A stretch of DNA of 64,000 bases from NCBI RefSeq assembly GCF_003334355.1, contig NZ_QOWP01000002.1; one strand, written 5' to 3'. The translations under genes and the position numbers were made by a program. This document shows, piece after piece, positions 1 through 13,596 of the stretch (the first letter of the stretch is position 1; every line of letters begins with the position of its first letter). Under the pieces are notes generated by a model. The model saw nothing but the letters and a program-made list of their open reading frames with translations. It had not been told where the DNA came from and did no database searches. The stretch comes from Escherichia coli (GTDB lineage Bacteria; Pseudomonadota; Gammaproteobacteria; Enterobacterales; Enterobacteriaceae).

Positions 1-77
1 AAGCTGTTGAGTCGTTTTAAGTGTAATTCGGGGCAGAATTGGTAAAGAGAGTCGTGTAAAATATCGAGTTCGCACAT
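1..77 (-). CDS. IS10 transposase, N-terminal 26 codons only (gene continues past window edge)
   Basis: Minus-strand ATG at 77..75 followed by codons for MCELDILHDSLYQFCPELHLKRLNSL, the recalled N-terminus of IS10 transposase. Confidence 0.8.
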   Translation of the reverse strand, partial: MCELDILHDSLYQFCPELHLKRLNS

Positions 78-133
78 TTTGTTGTCTGATTATTGATTTT
101 TGGCGAAACCATTTGATCATATGACAAGATGTG
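70..133 (+). ncRNA. RNA-OUT-like antisense hairpin region of IS10 (pOUT transcript directed toward the IS terminus)
   Basis: Inverted repeat cacattttgttgtc (73-86) / gacaagatgtg (123-133) overlapping the transposase start on the opposite strand. Position matches the known IS10 RNA-IN/RNA-OUT layout. Boundaries approximate. Confidence 0.45.
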
Positions 134-184
134 TATCTACCTTAACTTAATGATTTTGATAAAAATCATTAGGGGATTCATCAG

Positions 185-2859
185 AACCCAGCCTGCAACG
201 TGTAGCTAAATACCATAAAAACTTCCCCCATGCGACGCTCGCCGCACTGGCAGAACTGCTGGCGTTAACAGAACCACCAGCCCGCCCTGGTTATCCAATC
301 ATCGAAGACAAAAAGCTGCCTGCACAGCAAAAAGCACGCGATGAATACTGGCGTACGCTGTTACAAACGCTGATGGCATCGCAGCCACAACTGGCAGCAG
401 AAGTGATGCCGTGGTTAAGTACTCAACCCCAGTCAGTGCTGAAGAGTTATTTATCGGCACCGCCCAAACCGGTTATTGATGGCACCGATAACAGCAATCT
501 GCCAGAAATCCTCGTTTCACCACCGTGGCGTAGTAAGAAAAAAATGACAGCTCCACGTCTTGATTTGGCACCGCTCGAATTAACTCCGCAAGTTTACTGG
601 CAACCAGGCGAACAAGAGAGGCTTGCCGCCACTGAGCCTGCCCGTTATTTCAGCACGGAATCTCTTGCGCAACGCATGGAACAAAAAAGTGGACGAGTTG
701 TATTACAGGAACTGGGTTTTGGGGATGATGTATGGCTGTTTCTGAATTATATACTCCCCGGAAAACTGGATGCTGCACGCAATTCACTCTTTGTTCAGTG
801 GCATTACTACCAGGGGCGGGTTGAAGAGATCCTGAATGGCTGGAACTCCCCGGAAGCACAATTAGCAGAACAGGCGCTCCGCAGCGGTCACATAGAAGCG
901 TTAATTAACATATGGGAAAATGACAACTACTCACATTATCGTCCGGAAAAGAGTGTCTGGAACCTGTATTTATTGGCACAGTTGCCGCGTGAGATGGCTT
1001 TGACCTTCTGGCTGCGTATCAATGAGAAAAAGCATCTGTTCGCGGGTGAGGACTATTTTCTCAGTATCCTCGGATTGGATGCGCTACCAGGTCTGCTGTT
1101 GGCTTTTTCACATCGTCCAAAAGAAACATTTCCGTTAATTTTAAATTTTGGCGCAACAGAACTGGCGCTGCCTGTTGCCCACGTCTGGCGACGTTTCGCG
1201 GCGCAGCGTGATCTGGCTCGCCAGTGGATTTTACAATGGCCGGAACATACGGCTAGTGCACTTATCCCTCTTGTCTTTACCAAACCCAGCGATAATAGCG
1301 AAGCCGCATTACTTGCCCTGCGTTTACTGTACGAACAGGGACATGGCGAATTGCTACAAACCGTGGCAAACCGCTGGCAGCGTACAGATGTATGGTCTGC
1401 CCTAGAGCAGTTGCTTAAACAGGGTCCAATGGACATTTACCCGGCACGCATTCCAAAAGCCCCTGATTTCTGGCATCCGGCAATGTGGTCCAGGCCTCGA
1501 CTTATCACTAATAATCAGCCTGTTACCGGTGACGCTCTGGAAATTATCGGCGAAATGCTGCGCTTTACCCAGGGGGGACGTTTTTATAGCGGGCTGGAAC
1601 AACTGAAAACGTTCTGCCAGCCACAAACGCTGGCAGCTTTTGCCTGGGATCTCTTCACTGCGTGGCAACAAGCTGGTGCCCCCGCAAAAGACAACTGGGC
1701 ATTTCTGGCGTTAAGTCTCTTTGGTGACGAAAGCACGGCACGGGATCTGACGACACAGATCCTCGCCTGGCCACAAGAAGGCAAATCTGCCCGTGCTGTC
1801 AGCGGCCTGAACATCCTTACCCTGATGAATAATGATATGGCGCTGATACAGCTGCATCATATATCGCAACGGGCTAAATCCCGCCCCTTACGTGATAACG
1901 CGGCGGAATTTCTTCAGGTGGTCGCAGAAAATCGCGGGCTAAGCCAGGAAGAGCTAGCGGACAGATTAGTCCCAACCCTGGGCCTTGATGATCCGCAGGC
2001 GTTGAGTTTTGATTTTGGTCCCCGGCAGTTTACCGTTCGCTTCGATGAAAACCTCAACCCGGTTATCTTTGATCAGCAAAACGTTCGCCAGAAAAGCGTT
2101 CCCCGTTTGCGCGCCGATGACGATCAACTGAAAGCGCCCGAGGCACTGGCCCGACTAAAAGGGCTAAAAAAAGATGCTACTCAGGTGAGCAAAAACCTGC
2201 TCCCGCGTCTTGAAGCTGCCCTACGTACCACCCGACGCTGGTCGCTGGCAGATTTTCATTCTCTGTTTGTTAATCATCCCTTTACCCGTCTGGTTACCCA
2301 GCGATTAATATGGGGGGGTTATCCGGCAAATGAACCGCGTCGTTTACTCAACGCCTTTCGTGTGGCCGCAGAGGGGGAGTTCTGCAATGCGCAAGATGAG
2401 CCAATTGACCTGCCTGCGGACGCTCTGATTGGCATTGCCCACCCGTTAGAAATGGCAGTAGAAATGCGCAGTGAATTTGCACAGCTTTTTGCCGATTACG
2501 AAATTATGCCGCCTTTTCGCCAGTTGTCGCGCCGCACGGTGCTGCTCACACCTGACGAGTCAACCAGTAACAGCCTGACTCGCTGGGAAGGTAAATCCGC
2601 TACCGTTGGGCAACTTATGGGAATGCGATACAAAGGCTGGGAGTCAGGCTATGAGGACACATTTGTCTATGACCTGGGCGAGTACCGGCTGGTCCTTAAG
2701 TTTTCACCCGGTTTTAACCACTACAATGTTGATAGCAAAGCGTTAATGAGCTGCCGTTCTCTTCGAGTGTACCGTGACAATAAATCCGTCACTTTTGCCG
2801 AACTTGATGTGTTTGATTTGAGTGAGGCGTTAAGCGCACCTGACGTCATTTTCCATTAA
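185..2859 (+). pseudogene. yehI: yehI-like DUF4132 protein, 3' portion; 5' end replaced by the IS10 insertion
   Basis: Reading frame is open from 163 to the stop at 2859 with protein-like translation, but has no ATG/GTG/TTG before 373. The ORF track gives 828 aa from the first internal Met. K-12 yehI is 1210 aa (recall) and lies directly upstream of yehK. Confidence 0.7.
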
Positions 2860-2919
2860 AACACAGCGGGCAGTGATGCGACTGCCCGTTATCTACACGA
2901 CTTACCAGCGGGGAAAGCG

Positions 2920-3237
2920 ATGATCGTGCAAAAAGAGCTGGTTGCTATTTACGATTATGAGGTCCCTGTACCTGAAGATCCGTTTTCCTTCAGACTTGAG
3001 ATCCATAAATGCCCTGAATTATTTACAGGTTCCGTCTATCGACTGGAGCGATTCCGGCTACATCCAACATTTCATCAACGTGATCGAGAAGATGCTGACC
3101 CGCTAATAAATGATGCGTTGATTTATATAAGAGATGAGTGTAATGATGAGCGGAAATTACGAGGTGAATCACCTGAAACTGTAATAGCAATTTTTAATCG
3201 TGAACTACAGAATATATTCAACCAAGAAATAGAATAA
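2920..3237 (+). CDS. yehK: YehK, small protein of unknown function (105 aa)
   Basis: ORF-track 105-aa ORF located between yehI and yehL, matching K-12 order and length. Confidence 0.8.
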   Translation: MIVQKELVAIYDYEVPVPEDPFSFRLEIHKCPELFTGSVYRLERFRLHPTFHQRDREDADPLINDALIYIRDECNDERKLRGESPETVIAIFNRELQNIFNQEIE

Positions 3238-3408
3238 TATACTCTAAATAATTCAAATTGGTCCGATCCGGCGCAACGTCCCAATGGCCTGGATTATAAA
3301 TCTCATTATCTTAATTGCAACGGGGTCCAGCCGTGGTTATAATTCGTTCGTTGGAACACGATGTTGCACAGGCTGCGGTGTTGGGCCTGAAAATAGTAAA
3401 TAAAAGAA

Positions 3409-3432
3409 CCTGCCTCACCAGCAGGTTTTTTT
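3409..3432 (+). terminator. Rho-independent terminator-like hairpin between yehK and yehL
   Basis: cctgc-ctcacca-gcagg stem-loop followed by ttttttt. Confidence 0.5.
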
Positions 3433-3543
3433 ATTTACTGTGATCTGCTTTCCAGATATTTTCCGCTCAAACAACTAATGCGCCAAACATTTATTGCGCG
3501 TAAAATATCGTTTATTTCATTAATACATTTCAGGGATGAATAT

Positions 3544-4632
3544 ATGTCACCGCAGAATAATCATCTGCAGCGTCCGCCTGCCGCTGTGTTATACGCCGAT
3601 GAACTGGCAAAATTAAAACAAAATGATAACGCACCTTGCCCGCCCGGTTGGCAGTTAAGTTTGCCTGCGGCCCGTGCTTTTATCCTTGGCGATAGCGCGC
3701 AAAATATTAGCCGTAAAGTGGTGATTAGTCCCTCTGCTGTCGAACGTATGTTAGTCACTCTTGCCACCGGGCGCGGTTTGATGTTGGTGGGGGAACCTGG
3801 CACCGCAAAATCTCTCCTGTCTGAATTACTGGCAACCGCTATTAGCGGCGATGCCGGGTTAACCATCCAGGGCGGCGCATCTACCACTGAAGATCAAATC
3901 AAATACGGCTGGAACTACGCTCTGCTTATCAATCATGGTCCATCAACGGAAGCGCTGGTCCCTGCCCCGCTTTACCAGGGAATGCGCGACGGCAAAATCG
4001 TCCGTTTTGAAGAGATAACGCGTACACCGCTGGAAGTGCAAGACTGTCTGTTAGGTATGCTTTCTGACCGGGTTATGACGGTGCCGGAACTCACCAGTGA
4101 AGCCAGTCAGCTCTATGCGCGAGAAGGCTTTAATATTATTGCCACTGCCAATACCCGCGATCGCGGCGTCAATGAGATGAGTGCCGCGCTAAAGCGTCGC
4201 TTCGATTTTGAAACTGTCTTTCCGATTATGGATTTCGCCCAGGAGCTGGAACTGGTCGCCAGTGCTTCGGCGCGTTTGCTGGCCCATAGCGGTATTCCGC
4301 ATAAAGTGCCTGACGCGGTACTGGAGTTACTGGTCCGCACCTTCCGCGATCTGCGTGCCAACGGCGAAAAGAAAACGTCAATGGATACCCTGACGGCAAT
4401 TATGTCCACCGCTGAAGCCGTGAACGTGGCCCACGCAGTGGGCGTCCGCGCCTGGTTTTTAGCGAATCGCGCAGGTGAGCCAGCCGACCTGGTGGACTGC
4501 ATTGCCGGAACCATCGTCAAAGATAATGAAGAAGATCGCGCTCGTCTGCGCCGTTACTTCGAACAGCGTGTCGCCACACATAAAGAAGCTCACTGGCAGG
4601 CTTATTATCAAGCCCGCCACCGCCTGCCGTGA
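3544..4632 (+). CDS. yehL: YehL, MoxR-like AAA+ ATPase (362 aa)
   Basis: Walker A GEPGTAKS at 3790-3813; Walker B-like IVRFEEI; LKRRFDF motif typical of MoxR-type ATPases. Start trimmed to Met 23 of the ORF (MSPQNN) to match the K-12 length. Confidence 0.9.
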   Translation: MSPQNNHLQRPPAAVLYADELAKLKQNDNAPCPPGWQLSLPAARAFILGDSAQNISRKVVISPSAVERMLVTLATGRGLMLVGEPGTAKSLLSELLATAISGDAGLTIQGGASTTEDQIKYGWNYALLINHGPSTEALVPAPLYQGMRDGKIVRFEEITRTPLEVQDCLLGMLSDRVMTVPELTSEASQLYAREGFNIIATANTRDRGVNEMSAALKRRFDFETVFPIMDFAQELELVASASARLLAHSGIPHKVPDAVLELLVRTFRDLRANGEKKTSMDTLTAIMSTAEAVNVAHAVGVRAWFLANRAGEPADLVDCIAGTIVKDNEEDRARLRRYFEQRVATHKEAHWQAYYQARHRLP

Positions 4633-4642
4633 GGAAAGATGC

Positions 4643-6922
4643 ATGAGCGAGCCGTTAATTGTCGGCATCCGGCATCATAGTCCGGCCTGCGCCCGGCTGG
4701 TGAAATCGTTAATCGAAAGCCAGCGGCCACGATACGTGTTGATTGAAGGCCCGGCTGATTTTAATGACCGGGTAGACGAACTGTTTTTAGCCCACCAGCT
4801 TCCGGTAGCTATTTACAGTTATTGCCAGTATCAGGACGGTGCAGCCCCCGGGCGTGGTGCCTGGACGCCATTTGCTGAATTTTCGCCGGAGTGGCAGGCG
4901 CTACAAGCCGCTCGTCGTATTCAGGCACAAACTTACTTCATCGATTTGCCTTGCTGGGCGCAGAGTGAAGAAGAGGACGATTCGCCTGATACGCAAGAGG
5001 AAAGCCAGACCTTGCTGCTGCGTGCCACCCGCATGGATAACAGCGATACCCTGTGGGATCACTTGTTCGAAGATGAAAGCCAGCAAACTGCATTACCCTC
5101 TGCGCTGGCGCACTATTTTGCCCAACTGCGGGGCGACGCCTCCGGCGATGCGCTCAATCGTCAGCGCGAAGCCTTTATGGCCCGCTGGATTGGATGGGCG
5201 ATGCAGCAAAATAATGGCGACGTGTTAGTTGTCTGCGGTGGCTGGCACGCTCCGGCACTGGCAAAGATGTGGCGCGAATGCCCTCAGAAAATTAACAAGC
5301 CAGAATTGCCCTCGCTGGCAGATGCCGTTACAGGTTGTTATCTCACACCCTACAGTGAAAAGCGCCTTGATGTGCTGGCAGGATACCTTTCAGGAATGCC
5401 TGCCCCGGTATGGCAAAACTGGTGCTGGCAGTGGGGCTTGCAGAAGGCCGGTGAACAACTGCTAAAAACTATCCTTACCCGTTTGCGCCAGCACAAATTG
5501 CCCGCTTCTACCGCGGATATGGCTGCCGCTCATCTGCATGCGATGGCGCTGGCACAGTTGCGCGGTCATACACTACCGTTACGCACTGACTGGCTGGATG
5601 CCATAGCAGGCTCGCTGATTAAAGAAGCCCTGAACGCGCCGTTGCCGTGGAGCTATCGCGGCGTTATTCATCCCGATACCGATCCGATTCTGCTAACGTT
5701 GATAGACACATTAGCGGGTGACGGATTCGGTAAACTTGCCCCTTCTACGCCACAACCGCCTCTGCCAAAAGATGTCACCTGCGAACTGGAACGTACCGCA
5801 ATCTCCCTTCCGGCGGAGCTTACCTTAAATCGCTTTACCCCCGATGGGCTGGCGCAAAGTCAGGTGTTACATCGGCTGGCAATACTGGAGATCCCTGGGA
5901 TTGTACGCCAGCAGGGAAGTACACTGACACTTGCAGGCAACGGTGAAGAACGCTGGAAATTAACCCGCCCGCTTAGCCAGCATGCGGCATTGATTGAGGC
6001 CGCCTGTTTTGGTGCCACACTCCAGGAAGCCGCACGCAATAAATTAGAAGCCGATATGCTGGACGCGGGCGGAATCGGCAGTATCACCACATGTCTTAGC
6101 CAGGCGGCGTTAGCGGGTCTGGCGTCCTTCAGTCAACAATTACTGGAGCAACTCACACTATTAATCGCCCAGGAAAATCAATTTGCCGAAATGGGCCAGG
6201 CGCTGGAAGTGCTTTATGCCTTATGGCGGCTGGATGAAATTAGCGGTATGCAAGGCGCGCAGATATTACAAACGACGTTATGCGCGACTATCGATCGCAC
6301 GCTGTGGCTGTGTGAATCTAACGGCAGACCGGATGAAAAGGAGTTTCACGCTCACCTGCATAGCTGGCAAGCGCTTTGCCATATTCTGCGCGATCTACAT
6401 AGCGGCGTTAATTTACCCGGCGTTTCTCTTTCTGCGGCGGTAGCCTTACTGGAGCGACGCAGTCAGGCAATTCATGCCCCGGCGCTGGATCGCGGCGCGG
6501 CTCTTGGCGCACTAATGCGTCTGGAACATCCCAACGCCAGTGCCGAAGCGGCGCTGACGATGCTGGCGCAGTTATCCCCGGCACAATCTGGTGAGGCGCT
6601 GCACGGTTTGCTGGCGCTGGCCCGCCATCAACTGGCCTGTCAGCCGGCATTTATCGCCGGTTTCAGCAGTCATTTAAATCAACTGAGTGAAGCCGATTTT
6701 ATTAACGCCCTGCCCGATTTACGCGCGGCGATGGCCTGGCTACCACCACGAGAACGCGGGACGCTGGCGCATCAGGTGCTTGAGCATTATCAACTGGCGC
6801 AACTTCCCGTTTCGGCGCTGCAAATGCCGTTGCATTGTCCACCACAGGCCATTGCACATCATCAACAACTCGAACAGCAGGCACTGGCATCGCTGCAAAA
6901 CTGGGGAGTTTTCCATGTCTGA
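4643..6922 (+). CDS. yehM: YehM, large conserved protein of unknown function (759 aa)
   Basis: Start MSEPLIVG lies 10 nt after the yehL stop, preceded by gaggaaag. Length matches K-12 yehM. Confidence 0.9.
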   Translation: MSEPLIVGIRHHSPACARLVKSLIESQRPRYVLIEGPADFNDRVDELFLAHQLPVAIYSYCQYQDGAAPGRGAWTPFAEFSPEWQALQAARRIQAQTYFIDLPCWAQSEEEDDSPDTQEESQTLLLRATRMDNSDTLWDHLFEDESQQTALPSALAHYFAQLRGDASGDALNRQREAFMARWIGWAMQQNNGDVLVVCGGWHAPALAKMWRECPQKINKPELPSLADAVTGCYLTPYSEKRLDVLAGYLSGMPAPVWQNWCWQWGLQKAGEQLLKTILTRLRQHKLPASTADMAAAHLHAMALAQLRGHTLPLRTDWLDAIAGSLIKEALNAPLPWSYRGVIHPDTDPILLTLIDTLAGDGFGKLAPSTPQPPLPKDVTCELERTAISLPAELTLNRFTPDGLAQSQVLHRLAILEIPGIVRQQGSTLTLAGNGEERWKLTRPLSQHAALIEAACFGATLQEAARNKLEADMLDAGGIGSITTCLSQAALAGLASFSQQLLEQLTLLIAQENQFAEMGQALEVLYALWRLDEISGMQGAQILQTTLCATIDRTLWLCESNGRPDEKEFHAHLHSWQALCHILRDLHSGVNLPGVSLSAAVALLERRSQAIHAPALDRGAALGALMRLEHPNASAEAALTMLAQLSPAQSGEALHGLLALARHQLACQPAFIAGFSSHLNQLSEADFINALPDLRAAMAWLPPRERGTLAHQVLEHYQLAQLPVSALQMPLHCPPQAIAHHQQLEQQALASLQNWGVFHV

Positions 6923-8051
6923 ACTGAACGATCTTCTGACCACCCGTGAGCTACAACGCTGGCGATTAATTCTTGGCGAAGCGGCAGAAACGACGCTTTG
7001 TGGGCTGGATGACAACGCCCGGCAGATAGACCACGCGCTGGAGTGGCTGTATGGGCGCGATCCTGAACGGCTCCAGCGTGGTGAACGTTCCGGTGGATTA
7101 GGTGGCTCAAATCTCACCACCCCTGAGTGGATCAACAGTATTCACACGCTGTTTCCGCAGCAGGTGATTGAGCGGCTGGAAAGCGATGCCGTGCTGCGCT
7201 ACGGCATTGAAGATGTGGTGACGAATCTCGACGTGCTGGAACGTATGCAGCCTTCTGAAAGCCTGCTACGCGCTGTTTTGCACACCAAACATCTGATGAA
7301 CCCCGAAGTACTGGCTGCCGCCCGCCGGATAGTGTGCCAGGTTGTTGAAGAAATTATGGCTCGACTGGCAAAGGAAGTTCGCCAGGCTTTTTCTGGTGTC
7401 CGCGATCGCCGTCGCCGTTCATTTATTCCACTGGCGCGAAACTTTGATTTCAAAAGTACTCTGCGCGCCAACCTGCAACACTGGCACCCGCAACACGGCA
7501 AGTTGTATATCGAATCCCCCCGCTTTAACAGCCGCATTAAACGCCAAAGCGAACAATGGCAACTGGTCTTACTGGTTGATCAAAGCGGATCGATGGTCGA
7601 TTCGGTGATCCACTCTGCGGTAATGGCGGCCTGTTTGTGGCAGTTACCCGGCATTCGTACCCATCTGGTGGCGTTTGACACAAGCGTCGTTGATCTCACG
7701 GCAGACGTTGCCGATCCGGTAGAGTTATTAATGAAAGTACAGTTGGGCGGCGGGACCAATATCGCCAGTGCCGTGGAGTATGGTCGGCAACTTATTGAAC
7801 AACCAGCGAAAAGCGTCATTATCCTCGTGAGCGATTTTTACGAAGGGGGTTCATCATCATTACTGACGCATCAGGTGAAAAAGTGTGTCCAGAGCGGCAT
7901 CAAAGTGCTGGGACTGGCAGCGCTCGATAGCACCGCAACACCTTGCTATGACCGCGATACGGCCCAGGCGCTGGTTAATGTCGGCGCACAAATAGCCGCC
8001 ATGACGCCGGGCGAGCTGGCATCATGGCTTGCGGAGAATCTTCAGTCATGA
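6915..8051 (+). CDS. yehP: YehP, von Willebrand factor A (VWA) domain protein (378 aa)
   Basis: MIDAS motif DQSGSM (DxSxS) at 7578-7595 in the context VLLVDQSGSMVDS. Start overlaps the yehM stop by 8 nt. Confidence 0.9.
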   Translation: MSELNDLLTTRELQRWRLILGEAAETTLCGLDDNARQIDHALEWLYGRDPERLQRGERSGGLGGSNLTTPEWINSIHTLFPQQVIERLESDAVLRYGIEDVVTNLDVLERMQPSESLLRAVLHTKHLMNPEVLAAARRIVCQVVEEIMARLAKEVRQAFSGVRDRRRRSFIPLARNFDFKSTLRANLQHWHPQHGKLYIESPRFNSRIKRQSEQWQLVLLVDQSGSMVDSVIHSAVMAACLWQLPGIRTHLVAFDTSVVDLTADVADPVELLMKVQLGGGTNIASAVEYGRQLIEQPAKSVIILVSDFYEGGSSSLLTHQVKKCVQSGIKVLGLAALDSTATPCYDRDTAQALVNVGAQIAAMTPGELASWLAENLQS

Positions 8052-10051
8052 ATTCACTACGTCCGGAATTATTAGAACTGACACCGCAGGCCCTGACGGC
8101 GTTAAGCAATGCCGGTTTTGTTAAGCGCAGTCTTAAGGAACTGGAAAATGGCAACGTCCCGGAGATCAGCCATGAGAACGACGCTTTAATCGCCACCTTC
8201 AGTGACGGTGTCCGTACCCAGCTGGCGAACGGCCAGGCACTGAAAGAGGCTCAGTGCAGTTGCGGGGCCAACGGTATGTGCCGTCATCGCGTGATGCTGG
8301 TGTTAAGTTATCAACGACTTTGTGCCACCACTCAGTCTACGGAAAAAGAAGAAGAGTGGGATCCGGCAATCTGGCTGGAAGAACTGGCTACCCTTCCCGA
8401 TGCTACCCGCAAACGCGCACAGGCGCTGGTCGCTAAAGGCATCACCATTGAGTTGTTCTGTGCGCCGGGTGAAATTCCCTCTGCCCGCTTACCGATGAGC
8501 GATGTGCGTTTTTATTCCCGCAGCAGTATTCGTTTCGCCCGTTGTGATTGTATTGAAGGCACACTTTGCGAACATGTCGTACTGGCGGTACAGGCCTTCG
8601 TCGAGGCCAAAGCGCAGCAAGCAGAATTTAACCATTTAATCTGGCAGATGCGCAGCGAACACGTCACATCATCTGACGATCCGTTTGCCAGCGAAGAAGG
8701 CAACGCGTGTCGTCAATATGTTCAGCAATTAAGCCAGACATTATGGCTTGGCGGCATCAGCCAGCCGCTCATCCATTACGAGGCAGCATTCAACCGCGCA
8801 TTGCAGGCGGCAGAGACCTGCAACTGGCGCTGGGTGAGTGAATCGCTACGGCAACTGCGCGCCAGCGTTGATGCCTTCCACGCCCGCGCCAGCCACTATA
8901 ATGCCGGAGAATGCTTACATCAGCTTGCGGCATTAAACAGTCGATTAAATTGCGCACAAGAGATGGCCCGGCGCGACAGTATTGGTGAAGTTCCTCCTGT
9001 GCCGTGGCGCACGGTCGTTGGCTCTGGCATTGCCGGAGAAGCAAAGCTTGATCATCTGCGGCTGGTGTCTTTAGGTATGCGTTGCTGGCAGGATATTGAG
9101 CATTATGGTTTACGCATCTGGTTTACCGATCCCGACACCGGCAGTATTTTGCACCTTTCGCGCAGTTGGCCGCGAAGTGAACAGGAAAACTCACCGGCAG
9201 CTACGCGTCGGCTGTTTAGTTTTCAGGCTGGCGCACTGGCGGGCGGGCAAATTGTTTCACAAGCAGCAAAACGCAGTGCCGATGGCGAGCTGCTGTTAGC
9301 TACCCGCAACCGCTTAAGCAGCGTTGTGCCGCTGTCGCCTGATGCCTGGCAAATGTTGAGCGCGCCGTTACGCCAGCCGGGCATTGTGGCTTTGCGGGAA
9401 TATTTACGCCAGCGTCCCCCCGCCTGCATACGGCCTCTTAATCAGGTCGATAACTTATTTATTCTGCCGGTCGCTGAGTGTATTTCGCTCGGTTGGGATA
9501 GCAGCCGCCAGACGCTGGATGCGCAGGTAATCAGCGGCGAAGGTGAAGATAATCTGCTGACGTTATCACTGCCAGCCTCAGCCAGCGCGCCTTATGCCGT
9601 TGAACGCATGGCGGCGCTTTTGCAACAAACAGACGACCCCGTGTATCTGGTTTCTGGCTTTGTCAGTTTTGTTGATGGGCAATTGACACTGGAACCACAG
9701 GTAATGATGACAAAGACTCGTGCCTGGGCGCTGGACGCAGAAACTGCGCCTGTGGTGGTATCACTACCTTCTGCCAGCGTTCTGCCTGTGCCGTCTACTG
9801 CTCATCAGTTGCTGATGCGCTGCCAGGCGTTACTTATTCAACTGCTCCATAACGGCTGGCGCTATCAGGAACAGAGCGCTATTAGTCAGGCAGAGTTGCT
9901 GGCGAATGACCTCACCGCGGTGGGTTTTTATCGGCTGGCACATGTGTTGGCACAATTTCGTAATACAGAAAGCGAGGCACGGGTAGAAGCAATGAATAAC
10001 GGTGTTTTGCTTTGCGAACAATTATTCCCCATGCTTCAGCAACAAGGATGA
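8048..10051 (+). CDS. yehQ: YehQ, SWIM zinc-finger protein
   Basis: Two CxC-x(n)-CxH motifs: CSCGANGMCRH (8255-8287) and CDCIEGTLCEH (8543-8575). ATG at 8048 overlaps the yehP stop (ATGA). Start is uncertain; the ORF track begins at 8024. Confidence 0.8.
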   Translation: MNSLRPELLELTPQALTALSNAGFVKRSLKELENGNVPEISHENDALIATFSDGVRTQLANGQALKEAQCSCGANGMCRHRVMLVLSYQRLCATTQSTEKEEEWDPAIWLEELATLPDATRKRAQALVAKGITIELFCAPGEIPSARLPMSDVRFYSRSSIRFARCDCIEGTLCEHVVLAVQAFVEAKAQQAEFNHLIWQMRSEHVTSSDDPFASEEGNACRQYVQQLSQTLWLGGISQPLIHYEAAFNRALQAAETCNWRWVSESLRQLRASVDAFHARASHYNAGECLHQLAALNSRLNCAQEMARRDSIGEVPPVPWRTVVGSGIAGEAKLDHLRLVSLGMRCWQDIEHYGLRIWFTDPDTGSILHLSRSWPRSEQENSPAATRRLFSFQAGALAGGQIVSQAAKRSADGELLLATRNRLSSVVPLSPDAWQMLSAPLRQPGIVALREYLRQRPPACIRPLNQVDNLFILPVAECISLGWDSSRQTLDAQVISGEGEDNLLTLSLPASASAPYAVERMAALLQQTDDPVYLVSGFVSFVDGQLTLEPQVMMTKTRAWALDAETAPVVVSLPSASVLPVPSTAHQLLMRCQALLIQLLHNGWRYQEQSAISQAELLANDLTAVGFYRLAHVLAQFRNTESEARVEAMNNGVLLCEQLFPMLQQQG

Positions 10052-10129
10052 AATAGTGCTTTTTACTAAGAGTTCTACTCCAGTTCCGGACTGCTCACGC
10101 CACGGTATTAGGCATATTCTATATAGCCC

Positions 10130-10152
10130 CTGGTGAGAGTCACCAGTTTCTT
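10130..10152 (+). terminator. Hairpin downstream of yehQ (possible terminator)
   Basis: ctggtga-gag-tcaccag stem-loop followed by tttcttg. Confidence 0.4.
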
Positions 10153-10175
10153 GATTAAATAAAATGGAGTTTTAC

Positions 10176-10637
10176 ATGAAGGCTTTCAATAAGCTGTTTT
10201 CCCTCGTTGTTGCATCTGTTCTGGTTTTCTCTCTTGCTGGCTGCGGTGACAAAGAAGAATCGAAGAAATTCAGCGCCAATCTGAACGGCACTGAAATTGC
10301 CATTACCTATGTCTACAAAGGTGACAAGGTGCTTAAGCAATCTTCTGAAACCAAAATTCAATTTGCCTCCATTGGTGCAACCACCAAAGAAGATGCTGCC
10401 AGGGCACTTGAGCCGTTAAGCGCCAAATACAAAAACATCGCGGGTGTTGAAGAAAAATTAACCTATACCGATACCTACGCGCAGGAAAACGTGACTATCG
10501 ATATGGAAAAAGTGGATTTTAAAGCCCTGCAGGGTATTTCAGGAATCAACGTTTCTGCTGAAGATGCCAAAAAAGGTATCACTATGGCGCAAATGGAACT
10601 GGTGATGAAAGCCGCTGGTTTTAAAGAAGTGAAATAA
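10176..10637 (+). CDS. yehR: YehR lipoprotein (153 aa)
   Basis: Signal peptide with lipobox LAGC (MKAFNKLFSLVVASVLVFSLAGCGD). Position and length match K-12. Confidence 0.85.
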   Translation: MKAFNKLFSLVVASVLVFSLAGCGDKEESKKFSANLNGTEIAITYVYKGDKVLKQSSETKIQFASIGATTKEDAARALEPLSAKYKNIAGVEEKLTYTDTYAQENVTIDMEKVDFKALQGISGINVSAEDAKKGITMAQMELVMKAAGFKEVK

Positions 10638-10677
10638 TCTGTCGGCGGCCATGTTTCGCATGGCCGCCATACCCGTC

Positions 10678-11148
10678 TTAGCTTTTCTTCACATGCTGGC
10701 GCGCTGCCAGTCCACGCAGAAAATAACGTAAAAATTGATCGCCGCATTCGCGGAAGTTTTTATGATCCGGTGCACGCATCATCGCCGTAATTTCCGGCAT
10801 CGAAACGCGGAACTGCTGTTCGGTGAGGATCGCCAGAATGTCATCGGTTTTCAGCGAAAACGCGATGCGTAATTTTTTCAGCACGATGTTGTTATTAATG
10901 CGACGTTCCGGCTCCAGTGCCGGAGCAGACTCATCCTTGCCGCGTTTTTCATAAATCAGGCCATTGAGGAATGACGACAAAACAATGTCCGGACAACGCT
11001 GAAAACCCTCTTCGTCTTCTTTACGTAGCCAGACGGCGATCTGTTCCGCGGTGGCTTCGACATTACCCAGCGCCAGAATACGCACCAGGTCATTATTATT
11101 GGCTTTCAAAATATAGCGCACGCTGCGCAGAATATCGTTACTTAGCAT
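10678..11148 (-). CDS. yehS: YehS, DUF1456-family protein (156 aa)
   Basis: ORF trimmed to Met MLSNDILRSV to give the K-12 length. Convergent with yehR. Confidence 0.8.
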   Translation of the reverse strand: MLSNDILRSVRYILKANNNDLVRILALGNVEATAEQIAVWLRKEDEEGFQRCPDIVLSSFLNGLIYEKRGKDESAPALEPERRINNNIVLKKLRIAFSLKTDDILAILTEQQFRVSMPEITAMMRAPDHKNFRECGDQFLRYFLRGLAARQHVKKS

Positions 11149-11194
11149 GAGGCCTTCAGGTGTTGATGAGGCAAAAAGCCATTTTAGCAGTCTT

Positions 11195-11914
11195 TTACAG
11201 GCCAATCGCCTCTTTTAAGCTTTTCAGATAACGGCGGCTGACCGGCACGGTTAAGCCATTACGCAAAATCAACTCGGCCTGGCCGTTATCTTCCAGACGA
11301 ATCTCCTGTAAATGCGCGAGGTTAACCAGATACTGACGATGGCAGCGCAGTAGTGGTGTACGACTTTCCAGGGTACGTAATGTCAATTCGGTAAAGCCCT
11401 CTTTCCCTTCGTGGCTGGTAACGTAGACACCGCTCATCCGACTGCTGACAAATGCCACATCTTTCATTTGCAGCAAATAAATCCGACTATGCCCAGTACA
11501 AGGGATAAATTTCAGCGCCTGTTGATTTTCTGGTAACAGCGAAACATCCTGCTTGCTGCGTTCCTGCCGCAAACGCGCCAGCGTTTTCTCCAGTCGCGCT
11601 TCATCAATTGGCTTCAGCAGATAATCAAAGGCGTGTTCTTCAAAGGCTTTAATGGCGTATTCGTCAAACGCGGTGAGAAAAACAATATACGGACGATGTT
11701 CCGGGTCGAGCATCCCCACCATTTCCAGACCACTGATGCGCGGCATCTGGATATCGAGAAACAGCACATCCGGGCGCAGTTTATGCACCGCGCCGATCCC
11801 TTCCACGGCGTTTGAACACTCACCAACGATTTCAATATCGCTCTGCTCCTGCAAAAATACGCGCAGGTTCTCCCGTGCTAACGGTTCATCATCGACAATT
11901 AAGACTTTAATCAT
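11195..11914 (-). CDS. btsR: BtsR (YehT), LytTR-family response regulator (239 aa)
   Basis: Receiver domain signature [16 protein letters not shown]...LFLDIQMP with a C-terminal LytTR-type region. Start overlaps the btsS stop by 4 nt. Confidence 0.9.
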
Positions 11915-13596
11915 GCCTCGTCCCTCCATGGTAGTCGTAACGTTATTCGGGTGTAACTATCAGGCTCACAGGCGACGCTTATCCCATAGTCATCGCCAAA
12001 CCGTTCACGTAAACGCTTATCCACCAGATTCATCCCCAGCCCACTGGCATTGGTTACCGGTTGATACAAACCGGCATTGTCTTCGATCTCCAGCATTAAA
12101 TGTTGCCCCTCACGTCGGGCGCTGATTGCCACTCGCCCTGTATCCAGCAGTTGTGATGTCCCATGTTTAATGGCGTTTTCCACTATCGGTTGCAGGGTAA
12201 ACGCGGGCAATTGCTGCTGGGATAATTCTTGCGGAATAGCAATGTTGACCTGCAACCGCGACTGGAAGCGCGCCTTTTCAATTTGCAGATAAGCATTCAC
12301 ATGTTCAATTTCGTCGGCGAGAGTAACAAACTCCGAAGGCCGCTTTAAGTTTTTGCGGAAAAAAGTGGAAAGATACTGCACCAGCTGGCTGGCCTGTTCG
12401 CTGTCGCGACGGATCACCGCTTTAATGGTGTTAAGCGCATTAAACAAAAAATGGGGATTCACCTGGGCGTGAAGCAGTTTGATCTCTGACTGGGTGAGCA
12501 TCGCTTTTTGCCGCTCATATTGCCCGGCAAGGATCTGCGCCGAAAGCAGTTGCGCAATCCCCTCGCCCAGCGTGCGGTTGATTGAACTGAATAAACGGTT
12601 TTTGGCTTCATACAATTTGATGGTGCCCATCACCCGCTGATTTTCACCACGCAACGGAATTACCAGCGTCGACCCCAGTTTGCATTGCGGATGCAAAGAG
12701 CAACGGTAAGGTACTTCGTTGCCATCAGCGTAGACCACTTCACCGGTTTCAATCGCTTTTAAGGTATAAGTCGAAGAAATCGGTTTGCCGGGTAAATGGT
12801 GGTCGTCACCAATTCCGGTAAAGGCTAGCAATTTCTCTCGATCGGTAATCGCGACTGCACCAATATCCAGCTCCTGATACAGCACCTGTGCCACTTTCAT
12901 GCTGTTCACTTCGTTAAACCCCTGGCGCAAAATGCCTTCCGTCGAGGCCGCCACTTTCAGCGCAGTGGCAGAAAAAGCTGAAGTGTATTTTTCAAACATC
13001 GCGCGTTTATCGAGCAATATACGCATAAACAGCGCCGCGCCGACGGTATTGGTGACCATCATTGGCGCAGCAATATTACTCACCAGACGTACCGCATCTT
13101 CATAAGGTCGGGCGATCGCCAGGATGATCAACATTTGCACCATTTCAGCGACGAACGTGACGGCACCGGCGGTAATGGGGTTAAAGACTTTATCAGTGCG
13201 CCCGCGACGGATCAGGATGCTGTGTACCAGGCCGCCGAGCAATCCTTCAACGATGGTTGAGATCATGCAACTTAGCGCGGTCATGCCCCCCATCGAATAT
13301 CGATGTAAGCCGCCGGTCAGACCAACCAGCCCACCGACGACCGGACCGCCGAGTAAGCCGCCCATTACCGCGCCTATCGCACGGGTATTGGCAATAGAAT
13401 CGTCAATGTGCAACCCAAACCAGGTGCCCATGATGCAGAAGATGGAAAAGACGATGTAGCAGAGAAATTTATGCGGCAGACGAACCGTGACCTGCATTAA
13501 CGGTATGAATAATGGCGTTTTACTCATTAACCACGCAATGACTAAAAAAACGCACATCTGCTGAAGCAGCAGCAACACCAGATTAAAATCGTACAT
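11911..13596 (-). CDS. btsS: BtsS (YehU), LytS-type sensor histidine kinase (561 aa)
   Basis: Multi-pass N-terminal membrane domain and histidine kinase core ([16 protein letters not shown]). Length matches K-12. Confidence 0.9.

Follow-up and report, generated by a model that had tools for sequence, protein, structure and literature searches.

A recent, strain-specific IS10 insertion has very probably left the 3' part of yehI as a pseudogene remnant in an Escherichia coli strain

The stretch of DNA analysed here (the window; 64,000 nucleotides of contig NZ_QOWP01000002.1 from the E. coli assembly GCF_003334355.1) opens with the end of an IS10 element abutting a long reading frame that has no start near the junction. 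By some distance the most probable explanation of this arrangement is a recent IS10 insertion in codon 320 of yehI that left the remainder of the gene behind as a pseudogene remnant, in which case an IS10 copy would have transposed into that codon in a recent ancestor of the strain. Viewed more generally, this is a routine, recent and strain-specific instance of pseudogenisation by IS10, and public genomes already carry annotated examples both of the phenomenon itself and of close parallels within yehI.

The identity of the mobile element can be established from its end alone. Bases 1–184 of the window (minus strand) constitute the outside-end segment of an IS10 element (IS4 family, designated ‘ISVsa5 family’ in RefSeq) that runs on leftwards past base 1. 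It agrees in 184 of 184 bp with the end of a 1329-bp copy annotated in E. coli CT30 (‘IS4-like element ISVsa5 family’), and the canonical 23-bp outside end, CTGATGAATCCCCTAATGATTTT, is matched in 23 of its 23 bases at 162–184 on the minus strand (no mismatches, with 0 such occurrences expected by chance), base 184 being the final base of the IS. On the minus strand the transposase begins with an ATG at window position 77, at the distance from the outside end that characterises IS10 (about 108 bp); codons 1–25 occupy 3–77 (minus strand), and their translation, MCELDILHDSLYQFCPELHLKRLNS, is the N-terminus of the annotated transposase. The antisense RNA-OUT is present at 70–139 on the plus strand (Rfam RF00240; 97.3 bits against a gathering threshold of 41, E = 2.6e-20, full length at 1–70 of 70 positions), and its stem-loop was recovered by folding. 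With the exact terminal repeat, the transposase start and RNA-OUT all identified, the sequence-only reading, according to which an IS10 terminus abuts a yehI frame, can be regarded as sound. Since it is the outside end that is seen here, pOUT, the promoter from which RNA-OUT is transcribed, is directed, together with RNA-OUT, into the yehI remnant; a promoter scan did not flag pOUT, a result that was used as evidence neither way. When compared with the canonical Tn10-type IS10R (using the copy in K-12 Dam/Dcm), the segment shows 6 differences in 184 positions, two of them in RNA-OUT (78 and 102), one at the 3' edge of RNA-OUT (138) and three in the loop of the terminal hairpin (158, 160 and 161), despite which the predicted RNA-OUT fold is kept. 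These six differences imply that the IS10 end is a wild chromosomal variant, not a laboratory Tn10 derivative.

Directly beyond the IS, window 185–2859 (plus strand) is the 3' remnant of yehI. It corresponds, with 0 mismatches and 100% nucleotide identity, to nt 959–3633 of the intact yehI (3633 nt, 1210 codons) of E. coli PSS-12, window positions being obtained as CDS nt minus 774; these 2,675 nt are unchanged relative to the intact allele, and they are followed, in the expected synteny, by yehK and yehLMPQ. Since base 185 falls on the second position of codon 320, the remnant comprises the last two bases of that codon and everything from there to codon 1210 and the stop, while native nt 1–958, that is to say 319 codons and 1 nt, are absent from the window. 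The sequence-only reading had put the loss at about 320 N-terminal codons, and had proposed both an alignment to full-length yehI and a comparison with an uninterrupted allele from a related strain; the PSS-12 gene serves for both, and fixes the insertion codon as 320.

All of the coordinates that had been given for the reading frame were reproduced. Following a TAA at 160–162, inside IS10, the frame of the remnant is open from 163 to 2859 (the native stop being 2857–2859), and the first in-frame ATG, GTG or TTG is the ATG at 373, which corresponds to YehI Met-383 and begins a mechanical ORF of 828 aa (373–2859, plus strand). The other two outward frames meet stops within or just past the IS end, and because outward stops are thus present in all three frames, no IS–yehI fusion protein is possible. 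That the frame stays open far beyond chance simply reflects its origin in a real gene. As for the start-less stretch, it coincides with native codons 316–382 and is the fifth-longest run without ATG, GTG or TTG in intact yehI; it is unremarkable and represents no special feature. The remnant does keep the DUF4132 domain (Pfam PF13569; window 2086–2640, plus strand; YehI residues 954–1138), which is the sole Pfam domain detected in the intact protein (E = 5.1e-46) and which gives the intact gene its RefSeq name, ‘DUF4132 domain-containing protein YehI’.

A quite different view of the 828-aa frame would be that the gene is naturally of this size, as might be supposed if full-length homologues were complete within 373–2859. 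What is found is that YehH, the upstream paralogue (1264 aa, with WGR and DUF4132 domains), aligns from YehI residue 2 onwards, covering residues 2–1163 with 37% identity over 1184 columns, and that well-conserved blocks of this alignment fall inside the 319 lost residues; given that the N-terminus is conserved in YehH, yehI is not naturally short. Named members of the protein cluster have a length of 1210 or of 1264 aa, the rest being partial fragments. An identical 828-aa sequence does occur in public assemblies, and four of the five matches listed are frameshifted by 1 nt in an otherwise full-length yehI. In these four cases (L004, L005, L006 and L008, on contigs from metagenome and read-set assemblies) the 828-aa ORF follows 0–105 nt after one of 346 or 381 aa, and three different 1-nt homopolymer deletions are involved, at yehI nt 990, 999 and 1103, which may be independent frameshift alleles or may be assembly errors. 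They resemble the window in yielding the same mechanical ORF from Met-383 but differ from it in that no IS is involved, the common factor being that a gene caller returns this 828-aa ORF whenever the yehI frame is broken anywhere in codons 320–382. The implication for annotation is that the 828-aa ORF should be recorded as a yehI pseudogene fragment rather than as a protein.

The fifth listed occurrence of the 828-aa sequence is of greater interest, as it bears on whether the junction itself is real. IS elements are often misassembled, and one might suspect the junction of being an assembly chimera; however, the same IS10–yehI junction appears in the Logan contig ERR4578542_64, which was found in 6 samples and is identical to the window over 12,705/12,705 nucleotides (positions 1–12,705 of an 18,446-nt contig), some 12.7 kb downstream included, which makes a chimera extremely improbable. 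An assembly with k = 31 would be expected to break 30 nt into the IS10 end, and this is exactly where the contig begins. An identical junction in an independent public short-read contig indicates that the junction is genuine and belongs to a small lineage. A search of 5,426 complete RefSeq E. coli genomes did not find it, and with its occurrence in 6 public read sets this makes it usable as a lineage marker, a 38-mer across it being ATCATTAGGGGATTCATCAGAACCCAGCCTGCAACGTG. The closest genome is that of PSS-12 (from human faeces, Ecuador); over 62.7 kb it is separated from the window by 14 SNPs and 1 indel, and the PSS-12 chromosome has an intact yehI and gave no match to the IS10 end. That so nearly identical a strain has an empty site, together with the untouched sequence of the remnant, argues that the insertion is recent and specific to the lineage.

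If this was a simple insertion, the target would be the 9 bp at 185–193, AACCCAGCC (yehI nt 959–967), and a duplicate of it would be expected at the other end of the IS10. This presumed target fits the relaxed IS10 consensus NRCNNNGYN (PMC4574204), although with 72 such sites in yehI the fit is only weakly diagnostic, and it agrees with the strict IS10 hot-spot, NGCTNAGCN, in 4 of the 6 specified bases. On the plus strand one would then predict yehH, followed by yehI nt 1–967 ending in AACCCAGCC and passing directly into CTGAGAGATCCCCTCATAATTTCC (the inside end, at the far limit of 1,145 further bp of IS10 that adjoin the window); the 5' 967 nt of yehI would thus lie on the far side of the element, outside the window, following duplication of the 9 bp. 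That the 5' part was ‘displaced’, the word used in the sequence-only reading, is expected rather than seen.

The alternative to be weighed at this point is that IS10 brought about a deletion or an inversion and now stands at its border, or that the end seen here bounds a composite element like Tn10; the 5' third of yehI would then have been lost or would lie elsewhere in the genome. The one end in view, an outside end, could belong to a solo IS10 but equally to Tn10, at either of its sides. In addition, the products predicted for a simple insertion (computed for five yehI alleles as 333-aa proteins and for four of these also as 332-aa proteins cut at the contig end) were absent from the protein collection on exact look-up (0 of 9–10 found), the PSS-12 allele of YehH was found in no assembly besides PSS-12, and metagenome contigs scanned at the DNA level for a left junction with either the inside or the outside end gave 0 matches. 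However, these negatives are weak: the alleles looked for were assumed ones, and the right junction, although established as real, was equally missing (0 matches) from scans of the genome_contigs and metagenome_contigs collections, showing that the collections are without this lineage and that failure to find the left junction says little. Furthermore, the IS10 end is that of the CT30 variant, a wild, solo copy flanked by a duplication, not that of a Tn10-type IS10R, and metG, an essential gene lying some 5 kb upstream, limits the extent of any deletion. A rearrangement is on balance unlikely, and simple insertion is the reading followed in what remains.

Whether the remnant could still be expressed depends in the first place on transcription. 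Read-through from pOUT into flanking DNA amounts to about 10% of lacUV5 according to PMC9330008, which cites Simons et al. (1983) for the figure, and is also described in PMC4574204. Between RNA-OUT and the junction, folding yields a single structure, an A/U hairpin without a U-tract, and since nothing more than this stands in the way, some pOUT read-through RNA probably enters the remnant. Translation is another matter. The Shine–Dalgarno interaction calculated for the ATG at 373 is +0.9 kcal/mol, and the next in-frame starts reach −1.8 to −3.5 kcal/mol, as against −4.9 to −7.9 kcal/mol for the real starts of yehI, yehK, yehL, yehM, yehP and yehQ; lacking Shine–Dalgarno complementarity, the Met at 373 is unlikely to be used. 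The RNA, if left untranslated, would be liable to Rho-dependent termination, as bases 185–372 contain more C than G (60 against 39), and is likely to be terminated in this way before reaching yehK.

It could nevertheless be argued that pOUT-derived RNA is translated from the Met at 373 or from a nearby start into a protein of about 828 aa that contains DUF4132 and is active in part or in an altered way. The frame of 828 codons is unbroken, pOUT and RNA-OUT point into it, the domain is kept, and pOUT read-through is documented (PMC9330008). Against this must be set the poor Shine–Dalgarno values just given, and also the fact that the 319 lost residues and the 63 more up to Met-383 are conserved between YehI and YehH, so that the fold of the shorter product would probably be incomplete. 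Such expression therefore seems very improbable, and the proposal that the 5'-truncated yehI is a pseudogene unless that Met is used is upheld by the absence of Shine–Dalgarno complementarity there; judging by its sequence, the remnant is in all likelihood a non-functional pseudogene.

Rather than acting through a shortened protein, the insertion might be chiefly regulatory, with read-through from pOUT turning on yehK (2920–3237, plus strand, the next gene downstream) and yehL–yehM–yehP–yehQ (3544–10051, plus strand, the rest of the yehI cluster), all of which are intact in the window and which would otherwise be silenced by H-NS. The orientation of pOUT is suitable; yehL and yehM are reportedly repressed by H-NS/StpA from an intergenic binding region (PMC3686432), and IS10 is known to activate neighbouring genes (PMC4574204, PMC9330008). 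However, 2.7 kb of untranslated RNA, richer in C than in G, would separate pOUT from yehK and would favour Rho termination, the four independent IS10 insertions in yehI are divided 3 to 1 between the two orientations, and other strains have IS10 in yehL or have lost yehLMPQ altogether, which points to loss of the cluster, not to its activation. The promoter scan found promoter-like sites back-to-back in the yehK–yehL spacer, at 3293–3343, and these, taken with the H-NS/StpA binding region, suggest that yehLMPQ probably keep an H-NS-controlled promoter of their own in this spacer and are probably independent of yehI transcription. A mainly regulatory role thus appears decidedly unlikely.

An AAA_5 ATPase and a vWA protein form the core of the yeh cluster. 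One could combine the last two readings, supposing that pOUT either de-silences yehK and yehLMPQ or gives rise to a truncated DUF4132 protein, and that, together with a nonsense mutation in yehQ of PSS-12 (see below), this reflects active selection to rewire or disable the cluster; this broader scenario is very improbable. On the reading preferred here, the insertion looks like the decay, neutral or mildly favoured, of an accessory cluster that can be dispensed with.

Other strains give the population context. A query covering both orientations found IS10 in or beside yehI in 9 of 5,426 complete genomes, in both orientations. Within yehI itself it occurs at nt 1649–1657 in CT30/EC12/DSM 103246 and, in the opposite orientation, in STK78-E, and at nt 3403–3411 in K-12 Dam/Dcm; elsewhere it lies in yehL (WP5-S17-ESBL-10), in yehH (E92/E94) and beside yehK (D72). 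The copies at these other yehI sites carry 9-bp duplications. These RefSeq pseudogenes (CT30/EC12/DSM 103246, STK78-E and K-12 Dam/Dcm) involve the same gene and the same IS family as the window, their fragments being annotated as ‘incomplete; missing N-/C-terminus’, and the IS10 end in CT30 is that of the window; they differ in the site of insertion, which is nt 1649–1657 (twice) or 3403–3411 as opposed to nt 959–967. Two further ideas suggested by these data were rejected: that yehI as a whole is an IS10 hot spot, since 9 genomes is roughly what random placement of the several thousand IS10 copies in the collection would give (a rough estimate from the place counts), and that IS10 has a uniform orientation in yehI, which proved to be an artefact of a search that joins same-strand pieces only, no orientation bias being found. 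As a separate observation, the 9-bp target CGCTCCGCA (yehI nt 1649–1657; L002 3700–5028, and L012) has received IS10 both ways round in two unrelated strain groups, and would seem from this repeated use to be a genuine local hot spot.

Comparison may also be made with systems described in the literature. With gene disruption by IS10/Tn10 involving pOUT (Simons et al. 1983; reviewed in PMC9330008) the window has in common the outside end, RNA-OUT, the start of the transposase and a target in keeping with the consensus; as there, a gene is interrupted and pOUT points towards its downstream part, and no mechanistic difference was detected. A more distant relative is TnMB1860, inserted in the metG/DUF4132/yeh region in 184 isolates of the E. 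coli ST131 sublineage L1a (PMC9334617). As in the window, a mobile element breaks DUF4132 genes of the same locus, and it is stably carried by a successful lineage (PMC9334617); unlike the window, which shows a plain IS10 end, it involves a transposon of large size that carries resistance, and the phylogroup is another one.

The cluster has suffered other lesions as well: STK78-E has yehLMPQ deleted through IS1, K-12 has a frameshifted yehH, and PSS-12, though its yehI is intact, has two derived changes in yehQ, Q58* (window 8219) and P463S (window 9434). Such repeated breakage of yehH-I-K-LMPQ, by IS elements and by point mutations, implies that the cluster is dispensable in many E. coli lineages. 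Membership of a defence system, which was also considered, found no support: PADLOC returned 0 matches for YehI, YehK, YehL, YehM, YehP and YehQ. With NCBIfam the similarities of the yeh cluster proteins to AAA and vWA families all stayed below threshold, Pfam added nothing to the domains of the cluster, and a PDB sequence search with these proteins gave 0 matches. Beyond its consequences for annotation, the insertion probably matters little.

Several minor observations concern the pair formed by the window strain and PSS-12. Although nearly identical, each of the two has disabled a different gene of the yehH-I-K-LMPQ set; 3 of the 14 SNPs that separate them fall in yehP–yehQ, where the window has no derived non-synonymous change. 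The sole other structural difference over the window is in psuG (window 56372–57310, minus strand), which is intact in the window and interrupted by IS5 in PSS-12. At its 5' end, PSS-12 yehI shows 16 substitutions clustered within its first 275 nt (nt 72–275; L001 3043–3320) relative to four other alleles, which, together with a YehH allele seen in PSS-12 alone, suggests a recombination patch private to PSS-12 and extending across yehH and the 5' end of yehI.

The yehK–yehL spacer also holds a feature of its own, namely a full-length OrzO-P type I antitoxin sRNA at 3357–3432 (plus strand; Rfam RF02083, 101 bits), which carries no annotation in the RefSeq records inspected. Among ORFs of at least 20 aa there was none with a visible likeness to the small toxin ZorO. 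Conservation of the spacer extends to K-12 (99.2%), and in other lineages the spacer contains roughly 270–470 extra bp, or the record has a second matching place, either of which may represent tandem zor–orz copies.
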